Shown: positions 978-19,857 of the stretch, one piece after another
Layout of the letters: every line of letters begins with the position of its first letter
How positions within the stretch are numbered: position 1 is the stretch's first letter
Assembly (NCBI RefSeq): GCF_008065095.1
Contig: NZ_CP042911.1
Location: forward strand, 1,440,001-1,472,000
Direction: 5' to 3'
From: Gemmata obscuriglobus
Lineage (GTDB): Bacteria; Planctomycetota; Planctomycetia; Gemmatales; Gemmataceae
Length of the DNA: 32,000 bases
Notes under the pieces: model-generated
The model's database searches: none
What the model was told of the DNA's origin: nothing
The model's input: only the letters and a program-made list of their open reading frames with translations
Translations under genes and position numbers: made by a program

Positions 978-2126
978 ATGACCACACCCCGGCGCATCAC
1001 CGAACACGTCCGCGCTCCGTTCCGCGGCGCCCGCCCGAACCGCGAGTCGGGCACCATCGACGGCGTGCTCATCTGCGGCACCGCCAGCGCCAACGGGCGC
1101 GACTACCCCGTCGCCGTGCTGCGCCGCGACTGCGCCCGCTACGAGGGCCGGCCGGTCAACTGCGACCACGGCCGCGAGAGCACCGTGGAGCGGCGGCTCG
1201 GGTGGTTCACCAACGTCCGCCCCGGACCCGACGGGCGGCCCCGCGGCACCCTCAACCTGCTCCGCTCGCACCCCATGTACGAGCGCGTCATGGAGGCCGC
1301 CGAGCGCAACCCCGCGCTGTACGGGTTCAGCCACGTCGCGCTCTGCGACACCCGGCCCGGACCCGACGGGCGCGAGGTCGTCGAAGCCATCCGGGCCGTC
1401 GAGTCCATCGACCTCGTCGCACAACCCGCTACCACCAAAGGCCTGTTCGAAGGAGCACCCGTGCCGTTCACCCGCGCCCGACTGGTCGAGTGGCTCGCCG
1501 CGCACCCGGCGTCCACCCGCCGCCAACTCACCGCCGCCCGCCGGCTCGCCGAGATCGACGGCCCGGACGGCACCGACGGCACCGACATGCCGGCCGCCGA
1601 CGCGCCCCCGCCGCCCGACGCCGGCGCCGCCGCCCCGCTCGACGCCGCGTTCCTCGCCGCGGCCACCGACGAACTCAAGGCGTGCATGGCCGCCAAGGGC
1701 GACCCGAAGGCGCTCGGCAAGTGCCTCGCCAAGCTCAAGAAGATGCTCCGCGCGCACGCCGACATCACCACTGACGACACCGACACCGACGCCGACGCGC
1801 CCGAAACCGAGCCGCTCGACGACGACACCGACACCGACGACGGCGCCCCGAAGCCGGAGAGCGCGCGGCGCCGGGCCGGGGCCGTGCTGGAAGCGCTGGA
1901 CGTGTGCGAGCGGCTCGGCTACCGCCCCGGGCGCGAGGACCTGGAGCTGATCGCCGCCGCCCCGCGCGACCGCCGCGCCGCACTGGCCGCCCGGCTCCAG
2001 TGGGCCGCCGCGCCCGCGCCCGAGCGGCCCACCAGCGCCGGCCGCGGGCGCCTCGGGGCGCTCACCCGGGCCAGCGAATCGAAGCCGCCCGCCGACCCGA
2101 AGGCGTTCGCCGAGTGGATCGAGTGA
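978..2126 (+). CDS. phage prohead protease with C-terminal acidic scaffold-like region
   Basis: In-frame ATG at 978 within ORF 816..2126; the upstream codons are repeat sequence. The N-terminal half (GTIDGVLICGTASANGRDYP...CDHGRE...GWF...GFSHVA...VESIDLVAQPATTKGLFE) has the layout of caudoviral prohead serine proteases. The C-terminal part is Ala-rich helical plus a TDDTDTDADAPETEPLDDDTDTDD acidic tract, as in scaffolds. It sits directly upstream of the capsid genes. Confidence 0.6.
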   Translation: MTTPRRITEHVRAPFRGARPNRESGTIDGVLICGTASANGRDYPVAVLRRDCARYEGRPVNCDHGRESTVERRLGWFTNVRPGPDGRPRGTLNLLRSHPMYERVMEAAERNPALYGFSHVALCDTRPGPDGREVVEAIRAVESIDLVAQPATTKGLFEGAPVPFTRARLVEWLAAHPASTRRQLTAARRLAEIDGPDGTDGTDMPAADAPPPPDAGAAAPLDAAFLAAATDELKACMAAKGDPKALGKCLAKLKKMLRAHADITTDDTDTDADAPETEPLDDDTDTDDGAPKPESARRRAGAVLEALDVCERLGYRPGREDLELIAAAPRDRRAALAARLQWAAAPAPERPTSAGRGRLGALTRASESKPPADPKAFAEWIE

Positions 2127-2188
2127 CCGCCCCTCGGACCGGCACGGCCGCACCCGCACACCGCCCCCCAACATAACGAGGCCCGAAC

Positions 2189-2902
2189 GTGAACATCGTC
2201 CGCATGCCGCAAGCCCTGCGCGAAGCCAAAGACCTGCACGGGGTCTACGACGACTTCCCGTGGTACATCAGCCCGCACCTGTGGACCGCCACCCTCACCG
2301 ACTCCGGCACCGTCGTGGCCGCCGGCGTCGGCGGGATCGCCACCCTCACCAGCTCCGACGGGAGCGTGGCCGACAACGACGAATCGTACCTCGCTACCAC
2401 CATCGCCCTGTTCAAGCCCGCCGCCAACAAGCCGCTATACGCCGAAGCCCTGATCCAGTTCACCGAGGCCGCAACCGACGACGCCAACGTGGCGTTCGGG
2501 CTCGCGTCGTCGGTGGGGGCGAACCTGATCCTGGACGACGGCGCCGGGCTCCGCGCCAGCGGGACGGTCGTTGCCATCTACAAGGTGGACGGCGACACGG
2601 CGTGGCGGTTCGTCACCCGCAACGGCTCGGACGTGACCGTGAGCCAGAGCCAGGAGAGCGCCGGCGGGGCCGGCTACCAGCAGCTCGGGATCGAGGTCCT
2701 CGACGCCTTCGGCAGCTACGCCACCTGCGTCCCCACCGTGGACGGCCGGCTCATGCGCGACGCCGTCACCGGCCAGCCGATCCGGCACCAGCTCCTGCTC
2801 ACCGGCCTCGCCCCCGCGAGCCTGTTCGTGGGCGCCAAGAACGGCGGCGCCAACCTCGAAACCACCAACGTCGATTACGCCGGCTGCTGGCAGGCGCGCT
2901 GA
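2189..2902 (+). CDS. phage head-module protein (possible decoration/cement or auxiliary capsid protein)
   Basis: 237-aa ORF with a GTG start preceded by ACGAGG. It lies between the protease/scaffold gene and the major capsid gene. The sequence is Gly/Ala/Thr-rich and looks beta-rich. The family was not recognised with certainty. Confidence 0.45.
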   Translation: MNIVRMPQALREAKDLHGVYDDFPWYISPHLWTATLTDSGTVVAAGVGGIATLTSSDGSVADNDESYLATTIALFKPAANKPLYAEALIQFTEAATDDANVAFGLASSVGANLILDDGAGLRASGTVVAIYKVDGDTAWRFVTRNGSDVTVSQSQESAGGAGYQQLGIEVLDAFGSYATCVPTVDGRLMRDAVTGQPIRHQLLLTGLAPASLFVGAKNGGANLETTNVDYAGCWQAR

Positions 2903-3139
2903 GGAAATGCGGAGTGCGGAATTCGGAATGCGGAATTGAAGACAACAAGAACAATATCGCCCAGGCACCTGTTCGATGTTCCGCATTGCGGCTGTTCCGC
3001 ACCGAATTGCGTCCCGCTTGCTCGTTGTCTTGTATTTTGTTTGTTTGTTTGTTGGTTGGTTGGTTCTATTCCGAATTCCGAATTCCGCGTTCCGAATTGG
3101 GAACGTTCCGCATTCCGAACTCCACATTCCGAATTACCT
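2903..3139. repeat. AT-richer inverted arrays of heptamer repeats (AATNCGG)n ... (CCGNATT)n forming a long imperfect hairpin
   Basis: The left arm is aatgcgg agtgcgg aattcgg aatgcgg aattg. The centre has a tgtttgtttgtttgttggttggttgg tract. The right arm is attccga attccga attccgc gttccga ... gcattcc gaactcc acattcc gaatt. ORFs 2435..3127(-), 2799..3002(-), 2875..3405(-) and the first 68 codons of 2936..4345 translate it (NSEFRIPNSEF / SECGIRNAE-type strings). Confidence 0.85.
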
Positions 3140-4345
3140 ATGAACACTGCCAAACTGGTCGAATCGTACAAGCGGCACCCGGCGGAGACGGAGGCCGGGC
3201 TGCGGGCCTCGCTCCGCGGGGGCGCGATCCGCACCGAAGACCTGGACCTCGGCGACCTGTTCGTCGAGTGCTTCGGGTGGAACAACTTCAACCACTGCCG
3301 CAAGAACCTGGGCGACTGCGCCGAGCGCGCGCACGGGGTGCTCCAGCGCGCCCGGGTGGAGGAGGCCGCCGGGGCCAACAGCACCGCGGCGTTCCTCAAC
3401 ATCACCCAGCAGTTCGCCTACGAGCGGGTGCTGGCCGCCTACGACGTGCCCGCCCGCGTCTTCGTGAACGCCATCCCGACCCGGCCCAGCAAGTTCAAGT
3501 TCGAGCGCATCGCGGGCGTCACCCACGTCGGGGACGAGAGCGACGTGGTGGAGGAGGGGAAGCCGTACCCGGAGGTGGGCGTCGGCGAGGACTGGACCGA
3601 CACCCCGGAGACCCGCAAGCGCGGGATGATCGCGCGAGCGACGAAGGAGGCGGTGTTCTTCGACCAGACCGGCGAGTTCATGACCAAGCTCGACTCCCTG
3701 GGCGAGTGGCAGGGGGTGAGCGACGAGAAGCGGGCCATCACCTGCGTGGTGGACGCCGGCGAAACCCCCAAGAACCAGTACCGGTACCGGTGGCGCAACC
3801 TGGGGCCGATCCCCACCTACGGGGACAACAGCGGCGCGCACACCTGGGACAACCTGGTGACGGCCAACGCGTTGGTCGATTACACGGACGTGCAGGCCGC
3901 GTGGCAGGCCCTCGTCGAGATCCTGGACCCGGCCACGGGCGAGCCGCAGAACGTCACGGTCAAGCACATCTGCGTGCCGCCGGCGCTGGCGTTCACCGTG
4001 CCGTTCGCGCTCAAGGGGATGGTGCGCCGCACCGCCCCGGGGTACGCGACCTCGGGGAACCCGGTGGGCAGCGAGATCCCGAACCCGACCGGCGACATCA
4101 TCGGGCAGATCCAGGTGATGAGCAGCCAGTTGTTCCGGGCCGTGTCCGGGTCCGACACCACGTGGTTCCTGGGCGACCTGGGCGGCGCCTTCGAGCAGAT
4201 CGAGAACTGGCCGCTGACGGTCACCACGATGGGCGCCGGCAGCCAACTGGAGTTCGATCAGGACATCATCTTCCAGAGCAAAGTGTCCAAGCGCAGCACG
4301 TTCAACACGGTCCAGCCGCGCCGCATGTGCAAATGCACCGCGTGA
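3140..4345 (+). CDS. phage major capsid protein (HK97-fold type)
   Basis: In-frame ATG at 3140 in ORF 2936..4345, about 401 aa. The size, the position after protease/scaffold, and sequence character (AAFLNITQQFAYERVL..., KFKFERIAGVTHVGDESDVVEEGKPYPEVG..., ...ATKEAVFFDQTGEF...) are typical of Mu-gpT/HK97-like capsid proteins. Confidence 0.65.
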   Translation: MNTAKLVESYKRHPAETEAGLRASLRGGAIRTEDLDLGDLFVECFGWNNFNHCRKNLGDCAERAHGVLQRARVEEAAGANSTAAFLNITQQFAYERVLAAYDVPARVFVNAIPTRPSKFKFERIAGVTHVGDESDVVEEGKPYPEVGVGEDWTDTPETRKRGMIARATKEAVFFDQTGEFMTKLDSLGEWQGVSDEKRAITCVVDAGETPKNQYRYRWRNLGPIPTYGDNSGAHTWDNLVTANALVDYTDVQAAWQALVEILDPATGEPQNVTVKHICVPPALAFTVPFALKGMVRRTAPGYATSGNPVGSEIPNPTGDIIGQIQVMSSQLFRAVSGSDTTWFLGDLGGAFEQIENWPLTVTTMGAGSQLEFDQDIIFQSKVSKRSTFNTVQPRRMCKCTA

Positions 4346-4385
4346 GGTGCGGGCACCGGGAAAACAGACACCACGGGAACCGATT

Positions 4386-4676
4386 ATGGCCGACGAGACC
4401 AAGAAGGCGGGCGCGCGGGCGGGGCACGCGAAGGGCGAACCGCCCGCCCCGAAGCCCGGCGCGCGGGTGTGCGATCCGACCGAGCGGGCGGGGGAGGGGC
4501 TCAAGCGGTTCAAGCTGCGTCTGGAAGGGCACCCCTTCGGGGCACGCACCCAGCGGTACGTGCTCGCCCCGGACCGCGACAGCGCCGTGGGCGAGTACCT
4601 GCGGGCGGAGGGCATCGACCCGGGCGACGTGGACGGCGCGGGCGTCCGGGTGGTGGCGACCGAGCTGCCGGACTGA
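4386..4676 (+). CDS. small phage head-module protein, unknown function
   Basis: In-frame ATG at 4386 of ORF 4347..4676 (MADETKKAGARAGH...). It follows the capsid gene on the same strand. Confidence 0.45.
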   Translation: MADETKKAGARAGHAKGEPPAPKPGARVCDPTERAGEGLKRFKLRLEGHPFGARTQRYVLAPDRDSAVGEYLRAEGIDPGDVDGAGVRVVATELPD

Positions 4677-4781
4677 GGTGGGGGTGGAACTGGGTGCTCG
4701 CGGGGCCGGGCGATCGGTCGCCCCGCGAACACACGCGCCGTCAGCGGTTTCTCACTCACACGAGTTGGTACGAGGTCGCCC

Positions 4782-5009
4782 ATGCCGACGCCCCTTCAGA
4801 ACTTGCAGGCCGCGTACCGCGACGTGTGCGCGAAGATCGCCGAGGTGCTGGCGAACCCGCTGCCGGACTACACGCTCCCCGGGGGCGTGCGGGTGGACCG
4901 CAAGACCTACTACGAGAGCCTGCTGGACCAGGAGAAGAGCCTGCGGGCCATCCCCGGGGCCGCCCCGGACACCAACCCCGTGTTCACCCAGACCAGCATC
5001 GTGAGGTAG
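4782..5009 (+). CDS. small phage connector-region protein, unknown function
   Basis: 75-aa ORF (MPTPLQNLQAAYRDVCAKIAEVLANP...). It sits in the head-tail connector position and its stop is 2 nt before the next start. Confidence 0.5.
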   Translation: MPTPLQNLQAAYRDVCAKIAEVLANPLPDYTLPGGVRVDRKTYYESLLDQEKSLRAIPGAAPDTNPVFTQTSIVR

Positions 5010-5011
5010 CC

Positions 5012-5359
5012 GTGGCCGACGAACTGGACGGCATCGACTTCGGCGCCGACTTTGAGGCGCTCGCGCAGGGAACCGCCCCGGTCGCGGTGGCGAGCGTCGA
5101 TGCCATCAGCGGGGTAGCGGCGGTCACTGTAACGGGGGTTACAGCCGCGAAGCTGATCCGCAAGGGCTCCACCGGGCCGGCCCGGTCGGGCGAGGTCCAC
5201 ACCACGCAGAACGAGTTCTGGCTCCGCACGGACCGGCTCGGGTTCGTGCTGAAGCCGGTGGACCGGATCACCGAAGGCGACGGCACGGTGTGGGTGGTTG
5301 CCGAGGTGAACGAGGTGGCGGGCCGCATCGTGCGGTGCCCGGTCACGAGGAAGAGGTGA
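5012..5359 (+). CDS. possible head-tail adaptor / head-closure protein
   Basis: GTG at 5012 in the frame of ORF 4469..5359 (MADELDGIDFGADFEAL...DRITEGDGTVWVVAEVNEVAGRIV). The size (115 aa) and position fit. The call rests on synteny and weak pattern resemblance. Confidence 0.35.
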   Translation: MADELDGIDFGADFEALAQGTAPVAVASVDAISGVAAVTVTGVTAAKLIRKGSTGPARSGEVHTTQNEFWLRTDRLGFVLKPVDRITEGDGTVWVVAEVNEVAGRIVRCPVTRKR

Positions 5360-5363
5360 GCCC

Positions 5364-5825
5364 GTGCCGAACCCGGTGAGCCCGAACCTGATCGCCGACG
5401 CCGTGGTGGCCGCCGTCCGGGCGCTGAACCTCGTGCCCGGCAACAAGGTGCAGAAGCTCAAGACCCCGAGCCTGCCGAGCGGGGTGGACCCGCCGTTCAT
5501 CGCCGTGTGCGTGGGCGAGGGCGGCGAAGAGGGGCAGACGACGATTCTCACGTACCGGCACAAGATCAACCGCTACCCGACCACCGTCGTCATCATCGGA
5601 GCGGGCGACGGGCGCGTGCTGGCGGACGGCGAGCGGGTGCGGGAGTGGCGCACGCTCATCGAGCAGGCCGTGGGCGACTCCCGGGGGTGTTTCGCGACCG
5701 TCCCCGGGTGGCTGTTCACGGCGACGATCGGGAAGGCCCCGTTCGACGGCAGCCTGATCCCGCGCGACCTCGATTACTCGGCACAAACGTTCAACGTGGC
5801 GGTCGTGGAACCCCGGAGCACCTGA
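5364..5825 (+). CDS. phage neck / tail-completion region protein
   Basis: 153-aa ORF with a GTG start preceded by AAGAGG. It is tightly coupled to its neighbours. The call is by synteny only. Confidence 0.4.
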   Translation: MPNPVSPNLIADAVVAAVRALNLVPGNKVQKLKTPSLPSGVDPPFIAVCVGEGGEEGQTTILTYRHKINRYPTTVVIIGAGDGRVLADGERVREWRTLIEQAVGDSRGCFATVPGWLFTATIGKAPFDGSLIPRDLDYSAQTFNVAVVEPRST

Positions 5826-5826
5826 G

Positions 5827-6207
5827 ATGCCGTTTACGCATTCGATTAGCCTGACCTGGGGCGCGGGTGGCGACCTGATCGGCACCGCCGTGAGCAAGAC
5901 CGGCGGGATCGAGCAGAACTTTTCGCTCGGGCTCGGGACCGTGACCCACCAGTTGATCGACCTCGAATGGGCCGCGGCCAAGCTGCTCGCGATCTTCATC
6001 GTGGTCGACGCGGACTGCACGCTGAAGCTGAACAGCAGCGGCAGCCCGACGGACACCATCGCCCTCAAGCCCGGCGCCCCGTTCTGCTGGGTGCGGGACA
6101 GCGGGGTGGCGTACCCGTTCGTCGGGACCGCGGGCGCCGTGACCGCGGGGTACGTGACCACCGCGGCCGCAACGGGGATCGAGATCCGCACCCTGCTGGA
6201 CCTGTGA
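5827..6207 (+). CDS. phage structural protein, unknown function
   Basis: 126-aa ORF whose start abuts the previous stop (TGAGATG). Confidence 0.45.
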   Translation: MPFTHSISLTWGAGGDLIGTAVSKTGGIEQNFSLGLGTVTHQLIDLEWAAAKLLAIFIVVDADCTLKLNSSGSPTDTIALKPGAPFCWVRDSGVAYPFVGTAGAVTAGYVTTAAATGIEIRTLLDL

Positions 6208-6209
6208 CC

Positions 6210-6713
6210 ATGCCGCTCGACGCCGTCAGCCTCAGTGCCGCCTGCCGCTTCTCGTTCGCCCGGCCGGTGGCCGGCTGGGCGGCCCTGGAGCAGGGGACCA
6301 ACCAGGTCGCGTTCGGCGGCGCCCTCGACCCGGCCGCGTGGGACCAGGCGTACGCCGGCGTCCTCACCGTCGCGGGGGGCGGCGCCGCAACGATCGATCT
6401 GACGAACTTCACCGACCTGACCGGTCAGACCGGTGTCGCGCTCGCCGCGGTGCTGGGGCTGATCGCGCGGGCCGAGCCGGCCGACCCGGACAACAGCGAC
6501 ATCGCCGTCCGCGTCGGGCCGGGGGACGCGAACGGGTTCCAGTGGCTCGCCGGGGCCGGGGCGGTCGCGCTCGGCGCGGGCGAGTCGGTCGTAAAGATGG
6601 GCGCCCCGGCCGGCGGCGGCGGGGCCGTCGGCGGTACGCACAGGACGCTGAAGGTCGCCAACGCCGGGGCCGACGCCGCGACGGTGACCATCGTCATCAT
6701 CGGCCACACGTGA
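6210..6713 (+). CDS. phage structural protein, unknown function
   Basis: In-frame ATG at 6210 within ORF 5967..6713 (MPLDAVSLSAACRFSF...TVTIVIIGHT), 2 nt after the previous stop. Confidence 0.45.
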   Translation: MPLDAVSLSAACRFSFARPVAGWAALEQGTNQVAFGGALDPAAWDQAYAGVLTVAGGGAATIDLTNFTDLTGQTGVALAAVLGLIARAEPADPDNSDIAVRVGPGDANGFQWLAGAGAVALGAGESVVKMGAPAGGGGAVGGTHRTLKVANAGADAATVTIVIIGHT

Positions 6714-6720
6714 GGGGCCC

Positions 6721-7098
6721 ATGCCGGACAACTTTATCAGCGGCAACAACAGTTACGTGAAGCTCGGCGCGGTCGCGTTCAGCTTCAACAAGTGGCGCCT
6801 GCCGCTCGACGGGGGCGTGAAGAAGTTCTTCGCCTTCGGGCACAACTTCCAGCGCACGCTGCCCGGCGGGGTCGCGGGCGCGCCGGTGTGCGAGGGGCCG
6901 TACAACGCGGGCAACATGCCGCTCGCGCTCGGCGCCCTGGTGGTGCTGCACCTGGGGTTCGCGGCGGGCGTGGAGCTCGCCGTCAACGCCCGGGTGTCCA
7001 CCATCGAGTACAGCAGCGAGATCAGCGCCGGGGGGGACCCGGCCCAGTGCTCCGTCGGGTTCGAGACCGACGGCGAGTTCACCATCAACTTCACCTGA
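6721..7098 (+). CDS. probable tail tube protein
   Basis: 125-aa ORF immediately upstream of the chaperone pair and the tape measure, which is the canonical siphovirus order. The sequence is beta-rich (NSYVKLGAVAFSFNKW...EFTINFT). Confidence 0.5.
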   Translation: MPDNFISGNNSYVKLGAVAFSFNKWRLPLDGGVKKFFAFGHNFQRTLPGGVAGAPVCEGPYNAGNMPLALGALVVLHLGFAAGVELAVNARVSTIEYSSEISAGGDPAQCSVGFETDGEFTINFT

Positions 7099-7109
7099 CC
7101 GGAGCCGGT

Positions 7110-7577
7110 ATGAGCGAACGCGCGGCAGCCTTCGGCGCGCTGAACCCGCCGAAGGTGATCGAACACCGGGGCAAGACGTACCGCGTCGCGCCCGTCATGA
7201 CCGAGGGCACGCTGCTCCGGGTGGAGGAGCGGCTGTACGAGCGCGCCCGGGCGGCGCTGAAGGGCGCCCGCGAGCTGTACGCGGACGCGGAGTACGCGGC
7301 CGAGGTGGCGAAGCTGCGGGCGCGGCACGAGGCCGGCGAGTTCGCGTTCTCCAGCGAGAAGACGCTGGCGCACCTGGGCACCACCGAGGGCGCCGCGCTG
7401 CTGCTCTCGTGCATGATGGACGCCGACCTGGGGGAGGTGCTCCAGCTCCTCACCGAGCGCGAGGCGGACGTGCGCGAGCTGCTCGACGAGGCGGTGGAGC
7501 TGAGCTTCCCAAAAGGATCGCCCCCGCGGCCGGCGCCGGAGCCGCGGGGCGACCGGCCGCGCCCGAAGCGCCGGTGA
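7110..7577 (+). CDS. tail assembly chaperone (gpG-like)
   Basis: ATG at 7110 in the frame of ORF 6792..7577. It lies between the tube and tape measure genes. It contains a slippery heptamer near its 3-prime end, and the -1 frame is open from 7409 to 7876. Confidence 0.65.
   Translation: MSERAAAFGALNPPKVIEHRGKTYRVAPVMTEGTLLRVEERLYERARAALKGARELYADAEYAAEVAKLRARHEAGEFAFSSEKTLAHLGTTEGAALLLSCMMDADLGEVLQLLTEREADVRELLDEAVELSFPKGSPPRPAPEPRGDRPRPKRR
7508..7514 (+). promoter_or_regulatory. candidate -1 programmed ribosomal frameshift site C CCA AAA
   Basis: The zero-frame codons are ttC CCA AAA, an X XXY YYZ heptamer. It lies 61 nt upstream of the gpG-like stop. The -1 frame continues ...PKRIAPAAGAGAAGRPAAPEAPVRTPG... 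through to 7876. Confidence 0.55.
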
Positions 7578-7876
7578 GGACGCCGGGGGCGCTGACCGCC
7601 CGGTACGCCGTCCTCGTGAACGTCCACCGGCTGCGGATGCACGAGGTGCTAGACCTGACCCCGCGCCAGGTCCACGAGTTGTACTTCCACCCGCGGGACC
7701 GGGACGGGGCGATCCAACTCCCGGAAGGGGCCGGGGACGAGCCGGCCGACCGGACGGCGCGACTGGCCCAACTGATCGCGCTCGGGCCGGCGCTGGGCGT
7801 GCCGCCGGAGCAGATCGAGGAACTGAAGCGCCGACTGGGGGCCGTAACCGATGGCGACACCGGACCAACAGCTTGA
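7574..7876 (+). CDS. gpT-like ORF in the -1 frame, probably expressed as a G-T fusion (7110..7514 joined to 7514..7876)
   Basis: The frame is -1 relative to 7110..7577. A GTG at 7574 overlaps the upstream stop (GTGA). The ORF ends inside the start of the tape measure gene. Confidence 0.5.
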   Translation: MRTPGALTARYAVLVNVHRLRMHEVLDLTPRQVHELYFHPRDRDGAIQLPEGAGDEPADRTARLAQLIALGPALGVPPEQIEELKRRLGAVTDGDTGPTA

Positions 7877-9095: not shown

Positions 9096-9096
9096 G

Positions 9097-10242
9097 ATGG
9101 CACTGATGATGGAGCTGACCGGCGACAGCGAGCGTATGTCCACCGCAATTTCGCAGGAAGATGGGTCCGCCGAGGCGACGTACCGCATCATCGGTGACAC
9201 GCAGGACCAGCCCCCGGACGCGGACACGCTGCGCACCGTGGTTGACGGCTTCCTGGGCGGCGTGCTGAACCTGAAGGCGCGTGTCGTCGGCCAACAGTAC
9301 GCGGAGGCGGGCAAGATCAACCGCGTGCTCCCTGTCGTTCACCCGTTCCGGCCGGAACTGTCCGCCTCCGCGATCACGATTTCCGGCATCGGCAAGAGCC
9401 AGGCGGCCGACTCGAAGCCCACCGGGCTGTCGGCGGTGACGGTGCAGTACCCCCACTGGACCGCGTACGACCTGAAGGTCCGCTTCCAGAAGCGGCCGTA
9501 CCCGCTGGTGAAGAACGAGAACATCGCGGTCAAGAGCGACCTGACGTACTACCCACCCGACGGCAGCGCGGGCAAAACGGTCACCTACGCGGAGGAGTGG
9601 CGGCGGTTCACGACGCTCACGCGCACGCCGACCGGCGAAACGGTGTCCGCGAGCCTGGGTTCGATGATGTTCAAAACGCAGACCGGAACCGTTGCACCAC
9701 ACAACCGCAACTACACCGGGCAGGTCTACGCGTACCTTCCGAACGAGATGATTGAGCTGAACTGGTTCATGGTTCCGTTCCGGTACTTCCAGCAGTACGG
9801 CGATTCAAAGCCCTATTTGACGCGGTTCCAGAACACCATCAACCAGTACCCGTTCCTGGGGTTCGGTGCCGGCTCCTTGCTGTTCCTGGGGGCGACGCCG
9901 ACGAGCTACATCCCGGTGACGCCCGATGCGAAGCTGTACACGCAGGGGCTGGAAACCGGTGCCGACGCCGGGCTGCTGTGCAACGTGAAGCTGCGGTTCC
10001 TGTACACCTCGCGGGAGGGCACAGACGTGCCCGACTCGTCGAACCCGCTGTTGACGGCGAACCGGAACCGCGTTGCGGCGGGGCACAACCTGCTCATCAA
10101 CTACAGCGATCGACGGTACTACTACACCGTCACGGAGCCCACACCCGGCTCGGATGCGGGCCGGCACCCGAGCTTCGATTCGTTCCCGTTCCAGCTACTG
10201 TTCACCGACCCTCTGTACCAACAACCGGGCGGGGCGATTTGA
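9097..10242 (+). CDS. tail-tip protein, candidate receptor-binding protein
   Basis: ATG at 9097, 1 nt after the tape measure stop, 381 aa. It is the only tail gene downstream of the tape measure. Its last roughly 170 codons are duplicated at 10890-11400. Confidence 0.45.
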   Translation: MALMMELTGDSERMSTAISQEDGSAEATYRIIGDTQDQPPDADTLRTVVDGFLGGVLNLKARVVGQQYAEAGKINRVLPVVHPFRPELSASAITISGIGKSQAADSKPTGLSAVTVQYPHWTAYDLKVRFQKRPYPLVKNENIAVKSDLTYYPPDGSAGKTVTYAEEWRRFTTLTRTPTGETVSASLGSMMFKTQTGTVAPHNRNYTGQVYAYLPNEMIELNWFMVPFRYFQQYGDSKPYLTRFQNTINQYPFLGFGAGSLLFLGATPTSYIPVTPDAKLYTQGLETGADAGLLCNVKLRFLYTSREGTDVPDSSNPLLTANRNRVAAGHNLLINYSDRRYYYTVTEPTPGSDAGRHPSFDSFPFQLLFTDPLYQQPGGAI

Positions 10243-13292: not shown

Positions 13293-13306
13293 GGGGGATC
13301 GGGGGC

Positions 13307-13577: not shown

Positions 13578-13612
13578 GTGGATAATCCGCCACGTTGGTG
13601 CGCCGGTCGGCA

Positions 13613-14011: not shown

Positions 14012-14103
14012 GTCGGCTCCCGTGGGAAGGACGCTCGGCGTGAGGCGTCCGCGGCGGGCCAGCTTAAGCGACCCGCCGGGGTGGGGCAACGGGCAACCGG
14101 GGC

Positions 14104-14120
14104 CGCTGCCATCGGCCGGG
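14104..14120 (+). promoter_or_regulatory. copy 2 of shared motif CGCTGCCATCGGCCGGG, ending 2 nt before the ATG at 14123
   Basis: Exact 17-mer identical to 960-976 and 27825-27841. Confidence 0.5.
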
Positions 14121-14122
14121 GC

Positions 14123-15739
14123 ATGGCCGAACCGCTGCTGATCCGCGCCGTCATCACCGCCAAGGACGACTCGTCTGGCCGTTGGCGCTACGGCTGGAAG
14201 GAGCAGGGCACCGACCTGGGAACCGGCGGCGACCTGGACCCGCTCGGCTACCGCCGCGGCACGACGAGCGTCAACCCCGCGGTCGAGCTGAACGACCGCG
14301 AGGTGGCGCCCGGCACCGTGGTCTGGTTGCGCGAGCGGGGGTTCGTCGCCGGCCAGATGTGGTACGAGTTCGCGGTCACCGCCGGCGCCACTTCCTCCAC
14401 GACAACGACCACGACCACCACCGCCGGCCCGTGCGCCGGCGCGTGCCAGTGGACCTACTCCGCCGCCTCGAAGGCCTGGACCCGCACCACCTCCACCTGC
14501 GCCGCCGGCTGTCACTGCCTCGCCCCGACGTGGTGCCCCGCCGCCGACGCCTGCGCCACCACCGCGTGCGGGCGCCTCGCCGCGGACGCGCCGGCGCCGA
14601 GCTGCACCGGCGCCACGACCACCCCGGGCGCGTGCGGGACCACGACCCCGGGCGCGTGCGCCGCCGGGTGCGTGTGGTACTGCCACCCGGTGCGCGGCTG
14701 GGTGCAGCGGTCGAACGGGTGCTCGGGCGCCTGCCCGTGCCCGCGCCCGGCCGGCCCCTGCACCGTGTCCGAGTGCGCGACCGAGGCGACGACCCCGTGC
14801 CAGGTGCCGCCCTACTACTGCACCGGCTCGTGCCGGTGGATGTGGGTGAGCGCGGAACTCGGCTGGGAGTGGGTCACCGGCAGTTGCTCGTCCTACGGGG
14901 TGTCGGGCTGCGCGTGCGACCGCCCGGCCGCGCCCGGCTCGCGGTGCGGCCAGGAGGTGAGCACCCCGTGCTACTCCCCACAGGGCAACAACCCGTGCCA
15001 GACGGTGACCACCGCCGGCCCGCCGACCGCGTGCGGCGGGGACTGCCTCTGGGGGAGCACGGACGGCGCGAGCTGGAACCAGATCGTGCGGCCGTGCGTG
15101 GGCGCCGGGTGCGTGTGCGACCGCCCGCTGTACGCCCCGGCCGGCACCTGCTCGCAGGCCGCCGGCGCGTGCGTGCAGGGCGTGCCGACCACGACCACCG
15201 CCGCGCCGCCCACCACCACCACCGCCGGCCCGCTCCAGTGGTGGTGCTACGACTGCACGGAGAACCCGAGCTACGGGTTCTGGGGGTGCGCCGCGACGCC
15301 CACGATGCCCGCCGGGTGCGTGCAGAAGTCCGGCCCGTACCTCGGCGACAGCGCGGCGTGCGTGGCCGCGTGCCAGCCGCCGACCACCACCACCGCCGGC
15401 CCCACGACCACCCCGGCCCCCGCGACGACCAGCACAACGACCACCACCGCCGGCCCGCCGCCGGTCACCACCACCGCGCCGACCACGACGCCCGCGCCGA
15501 CCACCACCACGGCCGGCCCGGTGGTGGACTACTTCTGCTGCCAGTGCCCGCTGGGGGTCAACACGTGCTCCTTCGATCCGATTAACCAGTGCGCGGGCTG
15601 CACGGTCACGGGGCCGATGTCCCTGGCGTTGTGCAACGGCACGTGCGTGGGCGGGATCGGGGGCACGACCACCACACCGCCGCCGGCGCCCGTGACCACC
15701 GGGACCGGCACCGGTGGCCCGACGGCCAGTCCGGACTGA
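14123..15739 (+). CDS. Cys-rich modular protein with Thr-rich TTTAGP linkers and an N-terminal phage-like domain; no signal peptide
   Basis: ATG at 14123 in ORF 13595..15739; the upstream part overlaps DUF1304 antisense. There are four modules of the form C-x3-C-x-W-x(7,8)-W-x6-C-x(3,7)-C-x-C-x(1,2)-P, plus two more Cys-rich modules. They are separated by T(n)AGP linkers. Confidence 0.7.
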   Translation: MAEPLLIRAVITAKDDSSGRWRYGWKEQGTDLGTGGDLDPLGYRRGTTSVNPAVELNDREVAPGTVVWLRERGFVAGQMWYEFAVTAGATSSTTTTTTTTAGPCAGACQWTYSAASKAWTRTTSTCAAGCHCLAPTWCPAADACATTACGRLAADAPAPSCTGATTTPGACGTTTPGACAAGCVWYCHPVRGWVQRSNGCSGACPCPRPAGPCTVSECATEATTPCQVPPYYCTGSCRWMWVSAELGWEWVTGSCSSYGVSGCACDRPAAPGSRCGQEVSTPCYSPQGNNPCQTVTTAGPPTACGGDCLWGSTDGASWNQIVRPCVGAGCVCDRPLYAPAGTCSQAAGACVQGVPTTTTAAPPTTTTAGPLQWWCYDCTENPSYGFWGCAATPTMPAGCVQKSGPYLGDSAACVAACQPPTTTTAGPTTTPAPATTSTTTTTAGPPPVTTTAPTTTPAPTTTTAGPVVDYFCCQCPLGVNTCSFDPINQCAGCTVTGPMSLALCNGTCVGGIGGTTTTPPPAPVTTGTGTGGPTASPD

Positions 15740-15768: not shown

Positions 15769-18246
15769 ATGAGCAGCCCGCTGACGATCGGCATGGCGAC
15801 CCGGGGCGAGCCGGACCACGTGTGGTTCGTGCTCTCGGCCCTGGCCGCGAACCACCCGCGGGTCGAGTACCTGGTGGTGGACAATACCCCGGAGCGGGAC
15901 CCGCGGGTGGAGGCGATCACCCGGGCCGTGGGCGGCCGGTACCTGCACCGCCCGGACCTCACCGGTACGTCCAAGCCCCGGGACGCCGTGTTCCGGTTCG
16001 CTCGCACCCCGTGGGCCCTGTGCATCGACAGCCACGTGATTCTGGAAACGGGTGCGGTGCAGGCGGCCCTCTACTTCGCCTCACGTTATCCGGACTCGCG
16101 GGACATCGTGTCCGGGCCGCTGGTGCACGACGACGGCCGCGGGCTGGCGACCCACTGGCGACCGAACCCGGGCGGCGGGCTGTGGGGCACCTGGGACACG
16201 GACCCGCGCGGCGCGGCCCCCGCCGGCGAGCCGTTCGAGATCCCCATGATGGGCCTCGGGCTGTGGCTCATGCGCACCGCGGCGTGGCCCGGGTTCCACC
16301 CGCTGTTCAACGGGTTCGGGGGCGAAGAAGGGTACGTTCACGAGGTGGTGCGGCGCCGCGGGGGCCGGGCGCTGTGCGTGCCCGGGCTGCGGTGGCGGCA
16401 CAAGTTCCGCGACGTGTCCGGCTGGCACAACAACCCGCCGCCCCCGTACCCGCTCCGCACCGAGGACCACGTGTGGAACCTGCTGATCGGTCACCGGGAA
16501 CTCGGAATCGACGCGGTCCCGCAGATCCGCGAGCACTTCGGGAAGGGGCTGCCCGCGGACACCTGGGGGCGGCTGGTGGAGCGGTCCGAGGCGGTGCAGC
16601 CGGTCGGCGGCCCGCGTCCGGGGCCGAAGCGCCAGCGCATCCTGGCGGTCTGGTACACGGACAACAGCGCCCCCGCCGCGCTGCTCCAGCGGAGCGCCGA
16701 GACCGTGACCCACGCCCGCGACCAGACCTTACGGCACGACGTGACCGTGAGCGCGTGCGGGTGGGAACCGGTCGCCGGGGTGCGGGTCGGGGACCACTGG
16801 ACCACGTTCGCCGGTGAAAAGCGCCGCGCGCACGCCACCATCGCCGCGCAGATCCGGGCCGCCGCGGCAGCGGCGATCGCGGACGGCTCGCAGTTCGACG
16901 CCGTCGCGTTCTGCGAGCACGACGTGCTGTACCCGCCCGGGTACTTCGACCGGCTCGGCGACGCCCTCGCCGCGCACCCGTCGGCCCCGGTGGTATCGCA
17001 CCTCGATTACATCGGCCTCAACGGCACCGGCTGGCAGCCGGTGCGCGAGCGACACGAGCCGCTGCACCAGCTGGCCCTGCGGTGGGACACCTTCCTCACG
17101 AACCTGACCCGCGCCGAAACGGAAGCGGCCGGCGGTGGTCCGGTGGTCCTCGAACCGGACCACGGGGCCGACCGGTCCGCCTGGGCGCGGCTGGACCCCG
17201 CCGACCCCGCGGGCATGAGCGGCACGCCGGCCGTTCACGTGAACCACACCGCCGGCCGGTTCACGGCGCACGGGGACGTGTGCTACGAGCCGCGCGGCGC
17301 GTCCCTGTGGCACCCGCACTGGGGCGAGGCGCGTCACTGGTGGCCCGGCCCGATGACGACGGTGTCGAGCGTGGACGTGACGCAGTTCAAACCGCAGAAG
17401 CCGGCCGGGTGCTCGGCGTGCGAGGCGAACGCGCACCCGACGCCCGCCGCGTGGGCCGAGGCGTCGGCCGCGAAGCCGTCCGACTTCCACGAGCACGTCG
17501 GCACGCTGCGCGCGCTGGCGGCCGGCTGCGCGAGCGCCGCGGAGCTGTCGCTGTGGATGAAGCCGGCGGACGCGGCGCTCGTCGCCGGCCTCCCGGCCGA
17601 CGGCACGTTCGTGAGCGTGTGCCCCCGGCCGAAGCCGCAGTGGGAGCGGTTGAGGGGTTGGCTGGGCGCGCGGTTCGAGGGCCGCACCGCCGACCCGGCG
17701 GCCGCGGACCTGCCCCCGGTGGACCTGCTGTTCATCGACACCGATCACACCGCCGACGCGCTCATGCCCCTGCTGGAGCGGCACCACGAGCGGGTGGCGA
17801 AGTACATCGTGGTTCACTGCACCGAGACGTTTGGGGAGAGCGGCGACCGGCCCGACGCCCCGGGCGTGCTGCACGCGCTGCGAACCTTCTGCCACCGCCA
17901 CCCGGGCTGGGTGGTGAAGCGCCGCGATCGGAACAACCACGGGCTGATGGTTCTGTCGCGGTGCGCCGAGGACGTGAGGGCGAAGCCGGCGCTGTGGCGC
18001 CAGGCGATGAACTACACGGCGGCGATGGCGCGGCACGTGGCGGGCGGGCGCCGGACGGTGCCGCTGGAGGTGCTCGAATCGCGCCAAGCGGAGTGCGCGC
18101 TGTGCGAGGAGCGGGCGCTGGACGCGTGCGCCGCGTGCGGGTGCCCGCTGGAGGCCAAGCTGCCCCTCGCAACCGAATCGTGCGGGCTGGTGAAGAAGGG
18201 GCAGGCGCCGAAGTGGGGGCCGTGGCCGGACGCCCCGACCGGGTGA
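15769..18246 (+). CDS. multidomain enzyme: GT2-like glycosyltransferase, second glycosyltransferase-like domain, class I SAM-methyltransferase-like domain, and C-terminal Cys4-type zinc ribbon
   Basis: ATG at 15769 in ORF 15589..18246. The N-terminus (LTIGMATRGEP...YLVVDNTPERD...ALCIDSHV) looks like GT2. The middle (RILAVWYTDNS...FCEHDVLYPPGYF) looks like a nucleotide-sugar transferase. The segment VDLLFIDTDHTADA...YIVVHCTETF resembles Methyltransf_24-type enzymes. The end reads CALCEERALDACAACGCPLEAKL...SC. Confidence 0.65.
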   Translation: MSSPLTIGMATRGEPDHVWFVLSALAANHPRVEYLVVDNTPERDPRVEAITRAVGGRYLHRPDLTGTSKPRDAVFRFARTPWALCIDSHVILETGAVQAALYFASRYPDSRDIVSGPLVHDDGRGLATHWRPNPGGGLWGTWDTDPRGAAPAGEPFEIPMMGLGLWLMRTAAWPGFHPLFNGFGGEEGYVHEVVRRRGGRALCVPGLRWRHKFRDVSGWHNNPPPPYPLRTEDHVWNLLIGHRELGIDAVPQIREHFGKGLPADTWGRLVERSEAVQPVGGPRPGPKRQRILAVWYTDNSAPAALLQRSAETVTHARDQTLRHDVTVSACGWEPVAGVRVGDHWTTFAGEKRRAHATIAAQIRAAAAAAIADGSQFDAVAFCEHDVLYPPGYFDRLGDALAAHPSAPVVSHLDYIGLNGTGWQPVRERHEPLHQLALRWDTFLTNLTRAETEAAGGGPVVLEPDHGADRSAWARLDPADPAGMSGTPAVHVNHTAGRFTAHGDVCYEPRGASLWHPHWGEARHWWPGPMTTVSSVDVTQFKPQKPAGCSACEANAHPTPAAWAEASAAKPSDFHEHVGTLRALAAGCASAAELSLWMKPADAALVAGLPADGTFVSVCPRPKPQWERLRGWLGARFEGRTADPAAADLPPVDLLFIDTDHTADALMPLLERHHERVAKYIVVHCTETFGESGDRPDAPGVLHALRTFCHRHPGWVVKRRDRNNHGLMVLSRCAEDVRAKPALWRQAMNYTAAMARHVAGGRRTVPLEVLESRQAECALCEERALDACAACGCPLEAKLPLATESCGLVKKGQAPKWGPWPDAPTG

Positions 18247-18256
18247 TTGTGTCGCG

Positions 18257-18270
18257 TGCCATCGGCCGGG
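18257..18270 (+). promoter_or_regulatory. copy 3 of shared core motif TGCCATCGGCCGGG, 20 nt upstream of the ATG at 18291
   Basis: Exact 14-mer shared with the other three copies. A GGAGGA Shine-Dalgarno sequence follows at 18278-18283. Confidence 0.5.
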
Positions 18271-18290
18271 AACCTGTGGAGGATGCGGAC

Positions 18291-18533
18291 ATGCCGGCGA
18301 GCCTATCGGACCCGAGCGACTACTATTTCGCGGTCACCCCGAGCAACACGGCGAACGCCCCGCGCGCGTTCCGGTCCTTGCGGATCGGCGCCGCCGGGGA
18401 CGTGGTGGTGGTGCGAAAGGACGGCGCCGCGGTCACGTTCAAGAACTGCCAGGGCGGCGAGTGCCTGCCGGTCGAGGGCGTGCGCGTGAACGCCACGGGC
18501 ACCACCGCCGCCGACATCGTCGCCTACGCATGA
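18291..18533 (+). CDS. small phage/GTA spike-base-like protein (resembles the RCAP_rcc01079 family)
   Basis: ATG at 18291 in ORF 17082..18533, 80 aa. The pattern FAVTPSNTANAP...LRIGAAGDVVVVRKDGAAVTFKNCQGGECLPVEGVRVNATGTTAADIVAYA matches my recollection of that family (A-x-TPSDT ... GxAGDv ... vtf ... lP ... V-x-ATGTTA). Confidence 0.5.
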   Translation: MPASLSDPSDYYFAVTPSNTANAPRAFRSLRIGAAGDVVVVRKDGAAVTFKNCQGGECLPVEGVRVNATGTTAADIVAYA

Positions 18534-18543
18534 GGGGAGCGCG

Positions 18544-19857
18544 ATGAAATCGGGCGTGGGGCTGGCGATCAATCAGTTGCGGCGGACGGGCGGCATTACC
18601 GTGCCATCGCCACAGGAATCATGGCTGTCTACCGGCGGTCACTTCACAGACACGGCCGGTACTACCCCGGCGACGGCGACCGGCCAATTAGTAAAGTGCT
18701 GGACAGGTGTAGGCGGAGGAAAACTAACGGACATTGGGTCGAATTTTTGCACATATCAGAAGGACGCGGCCGGCATTGGGAAACACGCGGTGCGCGCCGA
18801 CGCAGCGGTACTGATCGGCGGAGTGCTGCCGGCGCCCCTGGATATGCAAAACCACGCGATGGTAATCGTTTACGAGAGGCGCCGGACGGATCGGGCTTCA
18901 TGCGTGAACGTGCTCACGACCGCTGATAACTTCGGTAGCGCGGGGCTGCATTTGATTAACGGATATCAGCGCCCTGAGATTGGTAGTTTGGGGAGCTACC
19001 TGCCGAGCGAGTACGGCGCGCCACTGACCGGTTTCTGGGTGATCGGGTTCACGAGTGTGGCGAGCGGATATCAGTGGTGTGTCAACGGGCGGTTGGCTCG
19101 CGCCAGCGCCACGCCATTAGCCGCCGGAACGAGGCCGGCAATCGGAATCGGGACCATCTCCGGGGTGAATTCGGGGGGGGATCTCGCGCAGCTTGACGTG
19201 TGGGCGACCGGACTCACTGGCCCGCAACTCCAGGCAGCGGTTCAAGCCCGTATGGCTACCTTCGGGATCACACTCCCGAGTCGGTCCGTTAACGTCATCT
19301 TCACCGGTAACTCGATCACATACGGCGCGTCTGCCGGATTTGCACCGTTCGCCTCGATCGCTGCGGACGCCGCCAGCGTGTCAGCCCATGATTGGCGCAA
19401 CTGGGGGAGTTCTGGCGCTACCACGTCCGCGCTCCAAAGTCGCGATGCGGCGATGTGGGGGACGTGGTATCAAGCCGGAACCAAGAACGTTGCGGTTCAG
19501 TGGGAGCTAACTAACTCGCTTGCATCTGGTGCTAGTGTCGCATCGACACTAGCGTCTCATGCGCAGTGGGTGGCGGACTCCAGGGCGGCCGGGTTCAAGA
19601 GCGTATGCCCCACCGTGATCAATCGCACCAGCCTGTTCAGCGGTGGTACGGACGCCACTGCATTTGCGGCTGCTCAGGCGGCTACTAACGCCGCGCTCTT
19701 GAGCAACTCGGGTGGGATTTATGGGGATGTGATCGTGGATTTGAGTAGCGTCGCATCGGCGGGCACCGCCGGCGACGGCACGCACCCGATCCAGGCCGGG
19801 CACACCGCGATTGGCGGTCTGGTGGGGGTGGGGCTGGCGACCGCACTGGCGATGTAA
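18544..19857 (+). CDS. LamG/ConA-like lectin domain fused to an SGNH/GDSL esterase (candidate spike/fibre with deacetylase activity)
   Basis: 437 aa with an RBS GAGGGGAG. The N-terminal half ends ...LAQLDVWATGLTGPQLQAA, which is LamG-like. The C-terminal half carries VIFTGNSITYG (block I Ser), WELTNS (block III-like) and DGTHPIQAGH (block V D-x-x-H). Confidence 0.65.
   Translation: MKSGVGLAINQLRRTGGITVPSPQESWLSTGGHFTDTAGTTPATATGQLVKCWTGVGGGKLTDIGSNFCTYQKDAAGIGKHAVRADAAVLIGGVLPAPLDMQNHAMVIVYERRRTDRASCVNVLTTADNFGSAGLHLINGYQRPEIGSLGSYLPSEYGAPLTGFWVIGFTSVASGYQWCVNGRLARASATPLAAGTRPAIGIGTISGVNSGGDLAQLDVWATGLTGPQLQAAVQARMATFGITLPSRSVNVIFTGNSITYGASAGFAPFASIAADAASVSAHDWRNWGSSGATTSALQSRDAAMWGTWYQAGTKNVAVQWELTNSLASGASVASTLASHAQWVADSRAAGFKSVCPTVINRTSLFSGGTDATAFAAAQAATNAALLSNSGGIYGDVIVDLSSVASAGTAGDGTHPIQAGHTAIGGLVGVGLATALAM

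Follow-up and report, generated by a model that had tools for sequence, protein, structure and literature searches.

The window analysed here is a 32,000-nucleotide stretch of the Gemmata obscuriglobus chromosome (NZ_CP042911.1, positions 1,440,001 to 1,472,000; about 70% GC), in which a block of phage virion genes lies beside a bacteriophytochrome gene. Genes were called by third-position GC, and exact-sequence look-up placed the capsid and head-spike-base proteins in G. obscuriglobus as GobsT_12150 and GobsT_12350, respectively. A previous reading of the letters of the window (hereafter the sequence-only reading) had proposed a domesticated element, possibly related to gene transfer agents (GTAs), with a decaying prophage or an element borrowing packaging functions as alternatives. 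Here, we compare the block with related loci, in particular with the corresponding locus of Gemmata algarum and with a second, complete element of G. obscuriglobus itself (the sibling).

Gene content of the locus

Fourteen tightly packed open reading frames (ORFs) on the plus strand, with zero internal stops, occupy positions 978–10242 (Table 1). They form a head, neck and tail cluster in which the slippery site of the tail assembly chaperone pair (G/GT) is intact, as the sequence-only reading had described. Equally in line with that reading, no terminase or portal family was found among the window ORFs (Pfam, PHROGs, NCBIfam), no integrase, repressor, replication, holin or lysin family was found in the window (Pfam, PHROGs), and the window contains no tRNA, no Rfam family and no att-like direct repeat between its left edge and 10.2–32 kb, the only shared words being those of a promoter-like motif.

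In both G. obscuriglobus and G. algarum, the 5' end of the element is g01, directly after host DNA formed by the phytochrome gene and a cluster of repetitive extragenic palindromic (REP) units. Of the left border described previously, the phytochrome gene and the repeats are real, but the gene lies on the minus strand, and the name protease for the first gene of the cluster is to be used with caution (see below). The phytochrome orthologue of G. algarum (728 amino acids, aa; PAS_2/GAF/PHY/HisKA/HATPase) is 95.7% identical at the protein level, with a synonymous divergence (dS) of 0.17. Units like the REPs of the window also occur in G. algarum (locus L088), in an intergenic region at 3.2–3.5 kb and in the g04–g05 spacer.

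Table 1. Features of the window, numbered from its first nucleotide
Feature	Position	Strand	Remarks
Bacteriophytochrome N-terminus, host flank	3..353	-	translation with MSSAMSTVDLVTCESEPIHIPGRVQPHGALL PAS-type N-terminus; divergent from the cluster
Eight host REP-like palindromes (CCCCCTTCCCTnnAGGGAAGGGGG)	479..931	.	5' edge of the element, between phytochrome and cluster
Motif copy 1 (CCGCTGCCATCGGCCGGG)	959..976	+	1 nt before the g01 ATG
g01, putative prohead protease, acidic scaffold-like C-terminal half	978..2126	+	always between portal and capsid genes in relatives
g02, conserved head-module protein	2189..2902	+	occurs together with g01 and the capsid gene in 101 loci
Lower-GC spacer like a miniature inverted-repeat transposable element (MITE), inverted GGAATKCGGAAT-type arms	2903..3139	.	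inserted between g02 and the capsid gene
g03, HK97-type major capsid protein (MCP; GobsT_12150 / WP_010040514)	3140..4345	+	PF25209 Phage_capsid_4, E 1e-10
g04–g07, small head-completion/neck proteins	4386-4676, 4782-5009, 5012-5359, 5364-5825	+	assigned by position
g08–g10, tail-completion and major-tail proteins	5827-6207, 6210-6713, 6721-7098	+	assigned by position; swapped lineage-B module starts here
g11/g12, tail assembly chaperone pair G/GT	7110..7876	+	slippery C CCA AAA at 7508-7514
g13, tape measure protein, 414 aa	7851..9095	+	phrog_1533, E 2.4e-4 (weak); position after G/GT
g14, tail-tip/distal-tail family protein, full length	9097..10242	+	sole gene after the tape measure
Tandem duplication, ~1157 bp	9727-10884 and 10885-12040	.	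94-99% identity, spacing 1155-1158
Motif copy 2	14103..14120	+	2 nt before the g17 ATG
g17, Cys/Thr-rich putative tail fibre	14123..15739	+	N-terminal domain travels with the tail module
g18, 825-aa glycosyltransferase (GT2), possible methyltransferase domain	15769..18246	+	PF00535, E 1.3e-11
Motif copy 3	18257..18270	+	20 nt before the spike-base ATG
g19, head-spike base, Rcc01079 family (GobsT_12350)	18291..18533	+	NF048002, phrog_12296, PDB 6TB9
g20, spike fibre, 437 aa	18544..19857	+	conserved N-terminal anchor peptide MKSGVGLAINQLRR; SGNH-esterase-like C-terminal half
Motif copy 4	27825..27841	+	21 nt before the ATG at 27863
Distal cassette: secreted coiled-coil protein	27863-28468	+	homologue in sibling
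Distal cassette: membrane-anchored 385-aa protein	28534-29691	+	homologue in sibling
Distal cassette: secreted Cys-rich protein	29768-30505	+	

Most of the small head and tail proteins have no annotation in Pfam, PHROGs or NCBIfam. Among the loci, tblastn gave 129 hits for g01. Two residues, His64 and Ser118, do not vary across 17 diverse homologues, one of which matches Peptidase_S77, weakly (5.7e-4); g01 itself has no direct Pfam match and no PDB match, and its assignment as a prohead protease is plausible. No family match (Pfam, PHROGs) was obtained for g02. The capsid protein scores 42.7 bits against PF25209 (cut-off 27) and has 224 homologues, nearly all from Planctomycetota. It had no match in 50,697 phage records, and the lineage it represents, with hundreds of relatives in prophages and metagenomes, is one that lacks a cultured member or any match among deposited phage genomes. 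The proteins g04–g07 have G. algarum orthologues (81–99% aa identity) and homologues in other elements with the same type of head (lineage A, see below); they have no family matches in Pfam or PHROGs, and proteins at the equivalent position in distant relatives match Phage_HCP.

Within the tail module, C CCA AAA at 7508 is read in the zero frame of 7110–7577, and the −1 ORF reaches 7876, beyond position 7851 where the tape measure gene starts. A single gene follows the tape measure, as the sequence-only reading had also noted, and it is full length: an exhaustive search found 365 representative full-length homologues of g14 (340–400 aa) that align end to end. Its AlphaFold2 model has a mean predicted confidence (pLDDT) of 92.5, and the protein matches uncultured Caudovirales proteins (E 3e-27, TM-score 0.78); searches of PHROGs and of PDB sequences returned nothing for it, and none of its PDB fold matches reached significance, distal tail (Dit) proteins heading the non-significant ones.

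The sequence-only reading had ended the element at 19857. Phage-family genes, however, extend to approximately 30.5 kb, after which the window closes with a response-regulator gene and host-like sequence. Homologues of g17 are situated after the tip gene in five related loci (L005, L006, L007, L088, L266). The glycosyltransferase g18 has a G. algarum orthologue (88.5% aa identity) and a homologue downstream of the L007 element, and in the sibling the 3' end of g18 stands before the spike base.

The head-spike base g19 is the protein that the sequence-only reading had assigned to the Rcc01079 family, known from the Rhodobacter capsulatus GTA (RcGTA). The family assignment stands: g19 scores 80.5 bits against NCBIfam NF048002 (cut-off 28; E 8e-23; model positions 8–84 of 85), and it matches phrog_12296 (E 4e-19) and the PDB 6TB9 chain Head spike base Rcc01079 (E 6e-10). 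It has a paralogue in the sibling (GobsT_71260, 85% identical) and an orthologue in G. algarum. The coordinates do not stand, as the 80-aa ORF originally proposed (18247–18489) is Arg-rich, has a second-position GC of 0.90 and is spurious, the real gene, also of 80 aa, being in the adjacent frame.

As anticipated previously, a fibre gene follows the spike base, beginning 11 nt downstream. The MKSGVGLAINQLRR anchor at the N-terminus of g20 is kept in its G. algarum orthologue and in a 268-aa protein of the sibling, while the remaining domains of these proteins are unrelated. No direct Pfam or PDB match was found for g20, and the esterase label derives from its GNS and DGTHP motifs, which align with those of the G. 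algarum protein, itself a match to PF13472 (Lipase_GDSL_2). In RcGTA, residues 2–10 (IALGLGLGL) of the fibre Rcc01080 dock on the base pentamer (PMC7296036), and by analogy it is reasonable to regard the N-terminal peptide of g20 as an anchor that would dock on the spike base.

No family matches were obtained for the distal cassette (27863–30505). Its first two genes have homologues in the sibling approximately 1.2 kb after the spike base (78% nucleotide and 80% aa identity), and the cassette possibly has a role in lysis. For the 385-aa membrane protein, there is no PDB or PHROG match, and a single-sequence AlphaFold model was unusable (pLDDT 36); a papain-like active site in this protein was a first impression that proved unsupported.

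Complete relatives and the operon-start motif

Exact-sequence look-up identified a second capsid gene in G. obscuriglobus, GobsT_71400. It belongs to the sibling, locus L266, on the draft contig ABGO01000043.1 (GobsT_7126x–7144x). The order of its genes is small terminase subunit (TerS), large terminase subunit (TerL), a 239-aa protein, portal, a 49-aa protein, g01, g02, MCP, neck, tail, tape measure, tip and a g17-like gene. TerS is assigned by PF03592, TerL by phrog_38 (E 1.6e-76) and the 1465-aa portal protein by phrog_21; the portal gene (4003–8400 of L266) carries the UniRef name ParB/Sulfiredoxin domain-containing. The capsid proteins of the two elements are 92.5% identical and differ at 30 residues, with dS of 0.43 between the MCP paralogues. 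From g01 onward, the window resembles the sibling in gene order, capsid, motif, g17, spike base, fibre anchor and distal cassette. It differs in lacking TerS, TerL, the 239-aa protein and the 1465-aa portal upstream, in its tail, which in the sibling is of lineage A, and in its spike fibre, the 437-aa esterase fibre standing in place of one of 268 aa.

The spike base of the sibling (GobsT_71260) is followed by a fibre gene and, approximately 1.2 kb on, by homologues of window positions 27863–28662. Hence, these genes are contiguous parts of the lineage and not dispersed accessory loci, and the GT2 gene, spike base, fibre and 27.8–30.5 kb cassette are ordinary components of its late region. The GTA-like dispersal of loci suggested by the sequence-only reading is thereby contradicted. 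It had also proposed to look elsewhere in the genome for terminase and portal genes accompanied by the same motif, and L266 has TerS, TerL, portal and motif.

Other complete relatives have the functions missing in the window as well (L007, L270 and L271, in addition to L266). In L007 the order is TerS (PF03592, 5e-36), TerL, portal, g01, g02 and MCP, and in L271 a prim-pol gene, DUF3987 and RNase_T precede TerS, TerL, portal and the genes from g01 onward. Portal and TerL genes were found upstream in 52 of the 75 loci with at least 8 kb of sequence upstream of the capsid gene. As relatives carry the replication-to-portal genes upstream of g01, the window lacks the left half of the phage genome, and the missing terminase and portal noted by the sequence-only reading are a genuine absence from the window. 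The portals of lineage A (900–1465 aa) are far longer than those of lineage B (502 aa), and therefore have large extra C-terminal domains.

The interval between portal and g01 varies. Gemmata sp. SH-PL17 (L005) and Gemmata sp. IIL30 (L006) encode an identical capsid protein and have different upstream regions. In SH-PL17 this interval contains a transposase, a 932-aa N6-methylase-like gene and a lactamase-fold gene, the portal being located 13 genes before the capsid gene by locus tag, and in IIL30 a truncated g01 lies beside a Ser/Thr kinase. The portal–g01 junction is an insertion/deletion hot spot of the lineage. In eight loci from metagenome-assembled genomes of Thermoguttaceae and Pirellulales (L031, L034, L037, L042, L045, L052, L053, L087; capsid 32–36% identical), the clusters begin at g01, directly beside host genes, and no upstream ORF is common to them. 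They share only g01, g02, MCP, head completion (PF05521), tail completion gp17 (PF11367) and two more genes. Their neighbours, judged by eye from N-termini, include GatA/GatB, an FHA-domain protein and an oxidoreductase. These loci represent permuted prophages or else a recurrent form without packaging genes.

The element of the window could be a complete prophage in permuted order, with att located between portal and g01 and the replication, terminase and portal genes lying beyond the right end of the window. The variability of the portal–g01 junction, where cargo is inserted in SH-PL17, agrees with this, as do the promoter-like motif that g01 has of its own, the eight loci that also start at g01 beside host genes and the extension of phage-family genes to at least 30.5 kb of the 32-kb window. 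Nevertheless, we regard this arrangement as very improbable, because only one portal was found in the G. obscuriglobus genome: a single word-indexed protein search yielded that of the sibling as the sole homologue (1465 aa, four protein accessions from GobsT_71400). In addition, a response-regulator gene and host-like sequence form the right end of the window, which contains no integrase or att repeat.

The four operons of the window start with a common motif, gTG[A/C]CATCGGCCGGGcATG (search form GTG[AC]CATCGGCCGGG). The word TGCCATCGGCCGGG occurs in four copies, all on the plus strand, compared to 0.45 expected by chance. Copy 1 is conserved in G. algarum (L088, position 7855) and, as TGACATCGGCCGGG, in the sibling; copy 2 is conserved before the g17 homologues of both; and the alignment of the distal cassettes of window and sibling begins at copy 4. 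The variable base is C in the window and in G. algarum and A in the sibling (TGC vs. TGA). Among Gemmata elements, all copies of CATCGG[C/T]CGGG are on the coding strand (23/23), and 15 of the 23 have an ATG within 1–2 nt. Relative to the A of the ATG, in the window and in L266, L267, L271 and L088, TG occupies −15/−14 and CATCGG −12 to −7, a geometry from which we infer an extended −10 promoter that would produce leaderless mRNAs. One G. algarum copy precedes a host-like acetyltransferase gene (L088:42). A scan of IMG/VR with a 15-nt form of the motif returned 98 single, scattered matches in unrelated high-GC contigs, which are noise.

Within complete elements, copies are found ahead of TerS, portal, g01 and tail genes. 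Its position before TerS and portal in complete relatives identifies it as a signal of the phage lineage and gives no evidence for a host-run regulon. The shared upstream motif of the sequence-only reading is therefore real and conserved, but its proposed fit to the dispersed, co-regulated loci of a GTA is not borne out. By these comparisons, the motif appears to be a property of the phage lineage rather than of a host GTA regulon.

Exchange of the tail, selection on the head and interpretation

Downstream of the head genes, the relationships of the element change. Positions 5800–14396, including g08–g10, resemble neither G. algarum nor the sibling nor any lineage-A locus, and nucleotide similarity to G. 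algarum restarts at 14397. The closest relative of g14 is found in the compact prophage L270 of Gemmata sp. IIL30, and the same prophage matches the whole tail: its gene string of 126-164-125-157-82-411-392 aa parallels the 126-167-125-155-79-414-381 aa of the window, with 42–70% aa identity across g08–g14. Individually, identities are 65%, 42% and 70% for g08, g09 and g10, 53% and 60% for g11/g12, and 45% for g13 and the 411-aa protein. The first 83 aa of g17 are 53% identical to the L270 protein encoded after the tip gene, whereas the rest of g17 resembles lineage-A proteins; the g17 N-termini of G. algarum and the sibling differ from that of the window.

These comparisons show the element to be a hybrid, in which the head (978–5825) is of lineage A, the tail and the N-terminal anchor of the g17 fibre (5827 to ~14400) are of lineage B, and the downstream part, i.e., the fibre body, GT2, spike base with its fibre and distal cassette, is again of lineage A. 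Since both the N-terminus of g17 and the tail are of lineage B, the exchange carried the tail along with the tail-binding domain of the fibre. Such a pattern would be expected if the hybrid must work.

The same locus is occupied in G. algarum JC717, with the phytochrome gene and REPs to the left and GT2, spike base, a GDSL fibre, Acyl_transf_3 and DUF1559 to the right. The estimates of selection compare these two species. For g01–g06 pooled (1304 codons), nonsynonymous divergence (dN) is 0.0155 and dS is 0.083, i.e., a ratio (omega) of 0.19 (bootstrap confidence interval, CI, 0.13–0.27); omega is 0.068 for the capsid gene and 0.30 for g02. The 4.9-kb head region differs by 10 indels, nine in the 467 intergenic nucleotides and a single one, of 6 nt and in frame, in the 4392 coding nucleotides. 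These patterns indicate that the head genes are under purifying selection and not in neutral decay.

At the same time, dS reaches 0.29 in the host flanks (CI 0.23–0.36) and 0.25 in GT2 and spike base, and it is 0.05 for the head genes of two G. algarum strains. Intergenic divergence of the head segment (6.9%) matches its dS, from which it follows that the whole segment coalesced recently, most simply, it would seem, through homologous exchange between lineages. The g02–capsid spacer measures 237 nt in the window, 227 nt in G. algarum, where the MITE is present, and 51 nt in the complete sibling, where it is absent. As the MITE spacer is common to both species and missing from the sibling, the exchanged DNA was chromosomal and not a compact phage genome. 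The spacer itself has long inverted arms flanking a T/G-rich centre; a MITE and a structured RNA are both conceivable. That recent gene conversion from the sibling keeps the head genes intact was ruled out by the dS of 0.43 between the MCP paralogues.

With the tail replaced, the head dS low and paralogous elements present in the same genome, inheritance of the element appears not to be simply vertical. Of the vertical inheritance under purifying selection that the sequence-only reading had named as support for domestication, the shared locus and the head omega are observed, while the replaced tail and a head dS about threefold below the flanks depart from it.

The element also shows wear. REP and MITE elements have entered its spacers, and a tandem duplication has copied the 3' 500 bp of the tip gene, giving a partial tip copy (10906–11400) that is on record as a called 164-aa protein (P0178), and has produced two copies of a minus-strand lipoprotein gene (10244–10687 and 11397–11843). 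A 59-nt fragment at the duplication junction (10823–10881) is 92% identical to 13613–13671, the 3' end of a minus-strand membrane-protein gene. The contig of G. algarum JC673 breaks near the duplication, as expected for a real repeat. Between the fibre and the distal cassette, acyltransferase and host-type genes take up approximately 8 kb; in the sibling the corresponding distance is approximately 1.2 kb, and this block has no homologue there.

One explanation would be a plain decaying prophage with no present function, whose ORFs look constrained through recent recombination with functional relatives. The lost replication, terminase and portal genes would be natural in such a remnant, as would the REP and MITE invasions, the truncated tip-gene copy, the acyltransferase and host-type block, the truncated g01 of the related IIL30 element and the low divergence of the head relative to the flanks. 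We consider this unlikely on three grounds. Firstly, the MITE spacer, found in both species and not in the sibling, implies that the head evolved as chromosomal DNA with no re-import from a compact phage genome. Secondly, nine of the 10 indels fall in the 10% of the sequence that is intergenic, and omega is 0.19 over the same time. Thirdly, the 14 ORFs of the cluster, the slippery site and the four motifs are all intact. A simple dead remnant would thus fit the indel and omega data poorly.

The interpretation that we favour, at a probability of roughly 60%, is a defective mosaic prophage, the structural half of which is probably retained under selection, maybe in dependence on a helper phage; it is not a demonstrated GTA. 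The element would be the late-gene (virion) half of a temperate, siphovirus-like Gemmata phage lineage, fixed between the phytochrome and DUF1559 genes, from which the replication, terminase and portal genes have presumably been lost. By itself, it would be unable to package DNA or to build a portal vertex. Its proteins may come into use during activity of the sibling or of an infecting relative, in mixed particles or as an alternative tail and fibres; the sibling could supply the portal, the terminase and perhaps the factor reading the shared motif. Alternatively, the block may be retained for another benefit to the host, e.g., by modifying surface glycans or interfering with related phages. 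Helper-dependent or GTA-like use would be no more than a possibility.

Several observations weigh against this interpretation. The lack of a second portal or terminase comes from one word-indexed protein search, with no search of the genome for TerL. At 0.083, the head dS is roughly a third of that of the flanks (0.25–0.29) and near the 0.05 within G. algarum, so that part of the apparent conservation may reflect recent allele exchange and not long retention. Purifying selection and intact ORFs are unlike a dead remnant, and some function must therefore be assumed. Finally, the extended −10 and leaderless character of the motif is deduced purely from its geometry.

A related proposal is that the element is GTA-like or a helper-dependent domesticated element, activated through the motif along with the sibling, or by a host regulator, which borrows the portal and terminase of the sibling and forms particles carrying host or sibling DNA, perhaps fitted with the lineage-B tail and the esterase fibre as alternatives. 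It would account for one locus being present in two species with omega of 0.19 and a strong bias against coding indels. As the truncation stops short of the g01 motif, each of the four operons retains its start signal; co-assembly with the sibling, whose capsid is 92.5% identical, is plausible; the tail swap kept functional borders, the fibre anchor moving with the tail; and the spike base with its fibre is a module like GhsA/GhsB of RcGTA.

Nevertheless, to our knowledge every known GTA encodes its own TerL and portal, and the window has neither. The motif is one base off that of the sibling. The multiple paralogous elements and module swaps are phage-like, unlike the single-copy vertical pattern of GTAs. 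The spike base cannot serve as a GTA marker, contrary to the use made of it in the sequence-only reading, because the family is present in 78 GenBank phage records (tblastn, INPHARED), including Flavobacterium podophages, Ralstonia RSJ5 and Verrucomicrobia P8625; it is thus found in ordinary phages. In the literature searched, no paper linking Gemmata to GTAs and nothing on Gemmata prophages of this kind was found. We therefore deem the proposal improbable; of the scenarios raised by the sequence-only reading, a decaying prophage or a helper-dependent element fits better than a GTA.

A more specific scenario, which we view as rather unlikely, is a virion-gene island without packaging genes, maintained by selection in the G. 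obscuriglobus/G. algarum clade, that is co-induced with the resident complete prophage via the leaderless-promoter motif and lends an alternative tail, fibres and spike esterase to its particles. If true, it would represent a "structural-module satellite" or a first step towards a planctomycete GTA, and the eight Thermoguttaceae/Pirellulales clusters starting at g01 beside housekeeping genes would be further cases of the same strategy.

Known systems and accessory genes

Defective prophages are reportedly retained under purifying selection in enterobacteria. The favoured defective mosaic prophage resembles them as a prophage block without autonomy functions that is orthologous across species, has omega well below 1 and has kept its ORFs intact despite deletions elsewhere. 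In contrast to them, the window keeps a whole virion set, i.e., 14 clustered genes plus fibres, and not a few scattered genes, the deletion coincides exactly with the half from replication to portal, the exchange of the tail module came after fixation, and the host is a planctomycete with a phage lineage that has no cultured member.

The comparison with RcGTA, which consists of a structural cluster and a ghsA/ghsB head-spike locus (PMC7296036, PMC8601537), yields shared features of virion type. Both have an HK97-type head, a siphovirus-type tail with the G/GT frameshift and a spike base of the Rcc01079 family, both lack integrase and replication genes, and the N-terminal peptide of the fibre, with its alternating hydrophobic residues, resembles the IALGLGLGL anchor of Rcc01080. 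On the other hand, the RcGTA cluster encodes TerS, TerL and portal and that of the window does not; in the window, spike genes and phage late region are contiguous, and in RcGTA the spike genes form a separate locus; the motif of the window belongs to a phage lineage and also stands before packaging genes of complete prophages; and there are several paralogous elements per genome.

Phage satellites keep integrase, replication initiator, regulator and packaging-redirection genes and usually have no tails. The element is similar to satellites such as phage-inducible chromosomal islands (PICI), their cf-PICI variants and P4-like elements in that part of the virion machinery is missing and a complete related phage in the same cell could complement it. 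It is unlike them in that integrase, replication, regulator and packaging-redirection genes are absent from the window, which carries heads and tails itself. The presence and conservation of the capsid and other head-module genes distinguish it from a tailocin.

As the locus demonstrates, a GTA cannot be recognised by a GTA-type marker, here the Rcc01079 spike base, combined with the absence of packaging genes; comparison with a sibling from the same genome resolves such a case. It documents an uncultured phage lineage that extends across Planctomycetota, and its sharply defined promoter-like motif could serve to map the regulon of the lineage and to find further members. It also provides unusually clean evidence that bacteria can keep a whole set of virion genes without the packaging machinery. 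Helper-dependent or host-beneficial use is directly testable in this cultivable, genetically tractable planctomycete.

The region between the spike fibre and the distal cassette contains further genes. Three Acyl_transf_3 genes on the minus strand (20044–23111), the first in a 52% GC island and the third truncated, are only 28–33% identical to the two found at the same place in G. algarum, which suggests swappable cargo for surface-glycan O-acylation beside the esterase fibre. Also on the minus strand, positions 24813–26210 encode a protein in which three DUF4214 repeats are combined with a stretch of collagen triple helix and a C1q-like BclA C-terminal domain, an architecture like that of an exosporium fibre, here in a planctomycete. 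The adjoining 26260–27820 segment, just upstream of the fourth motif copy, comprises approximately 1.5 kb without a convincing ORF and includes diverged repeats, 26328–26385 and 26968–27025, that are 74% identical.

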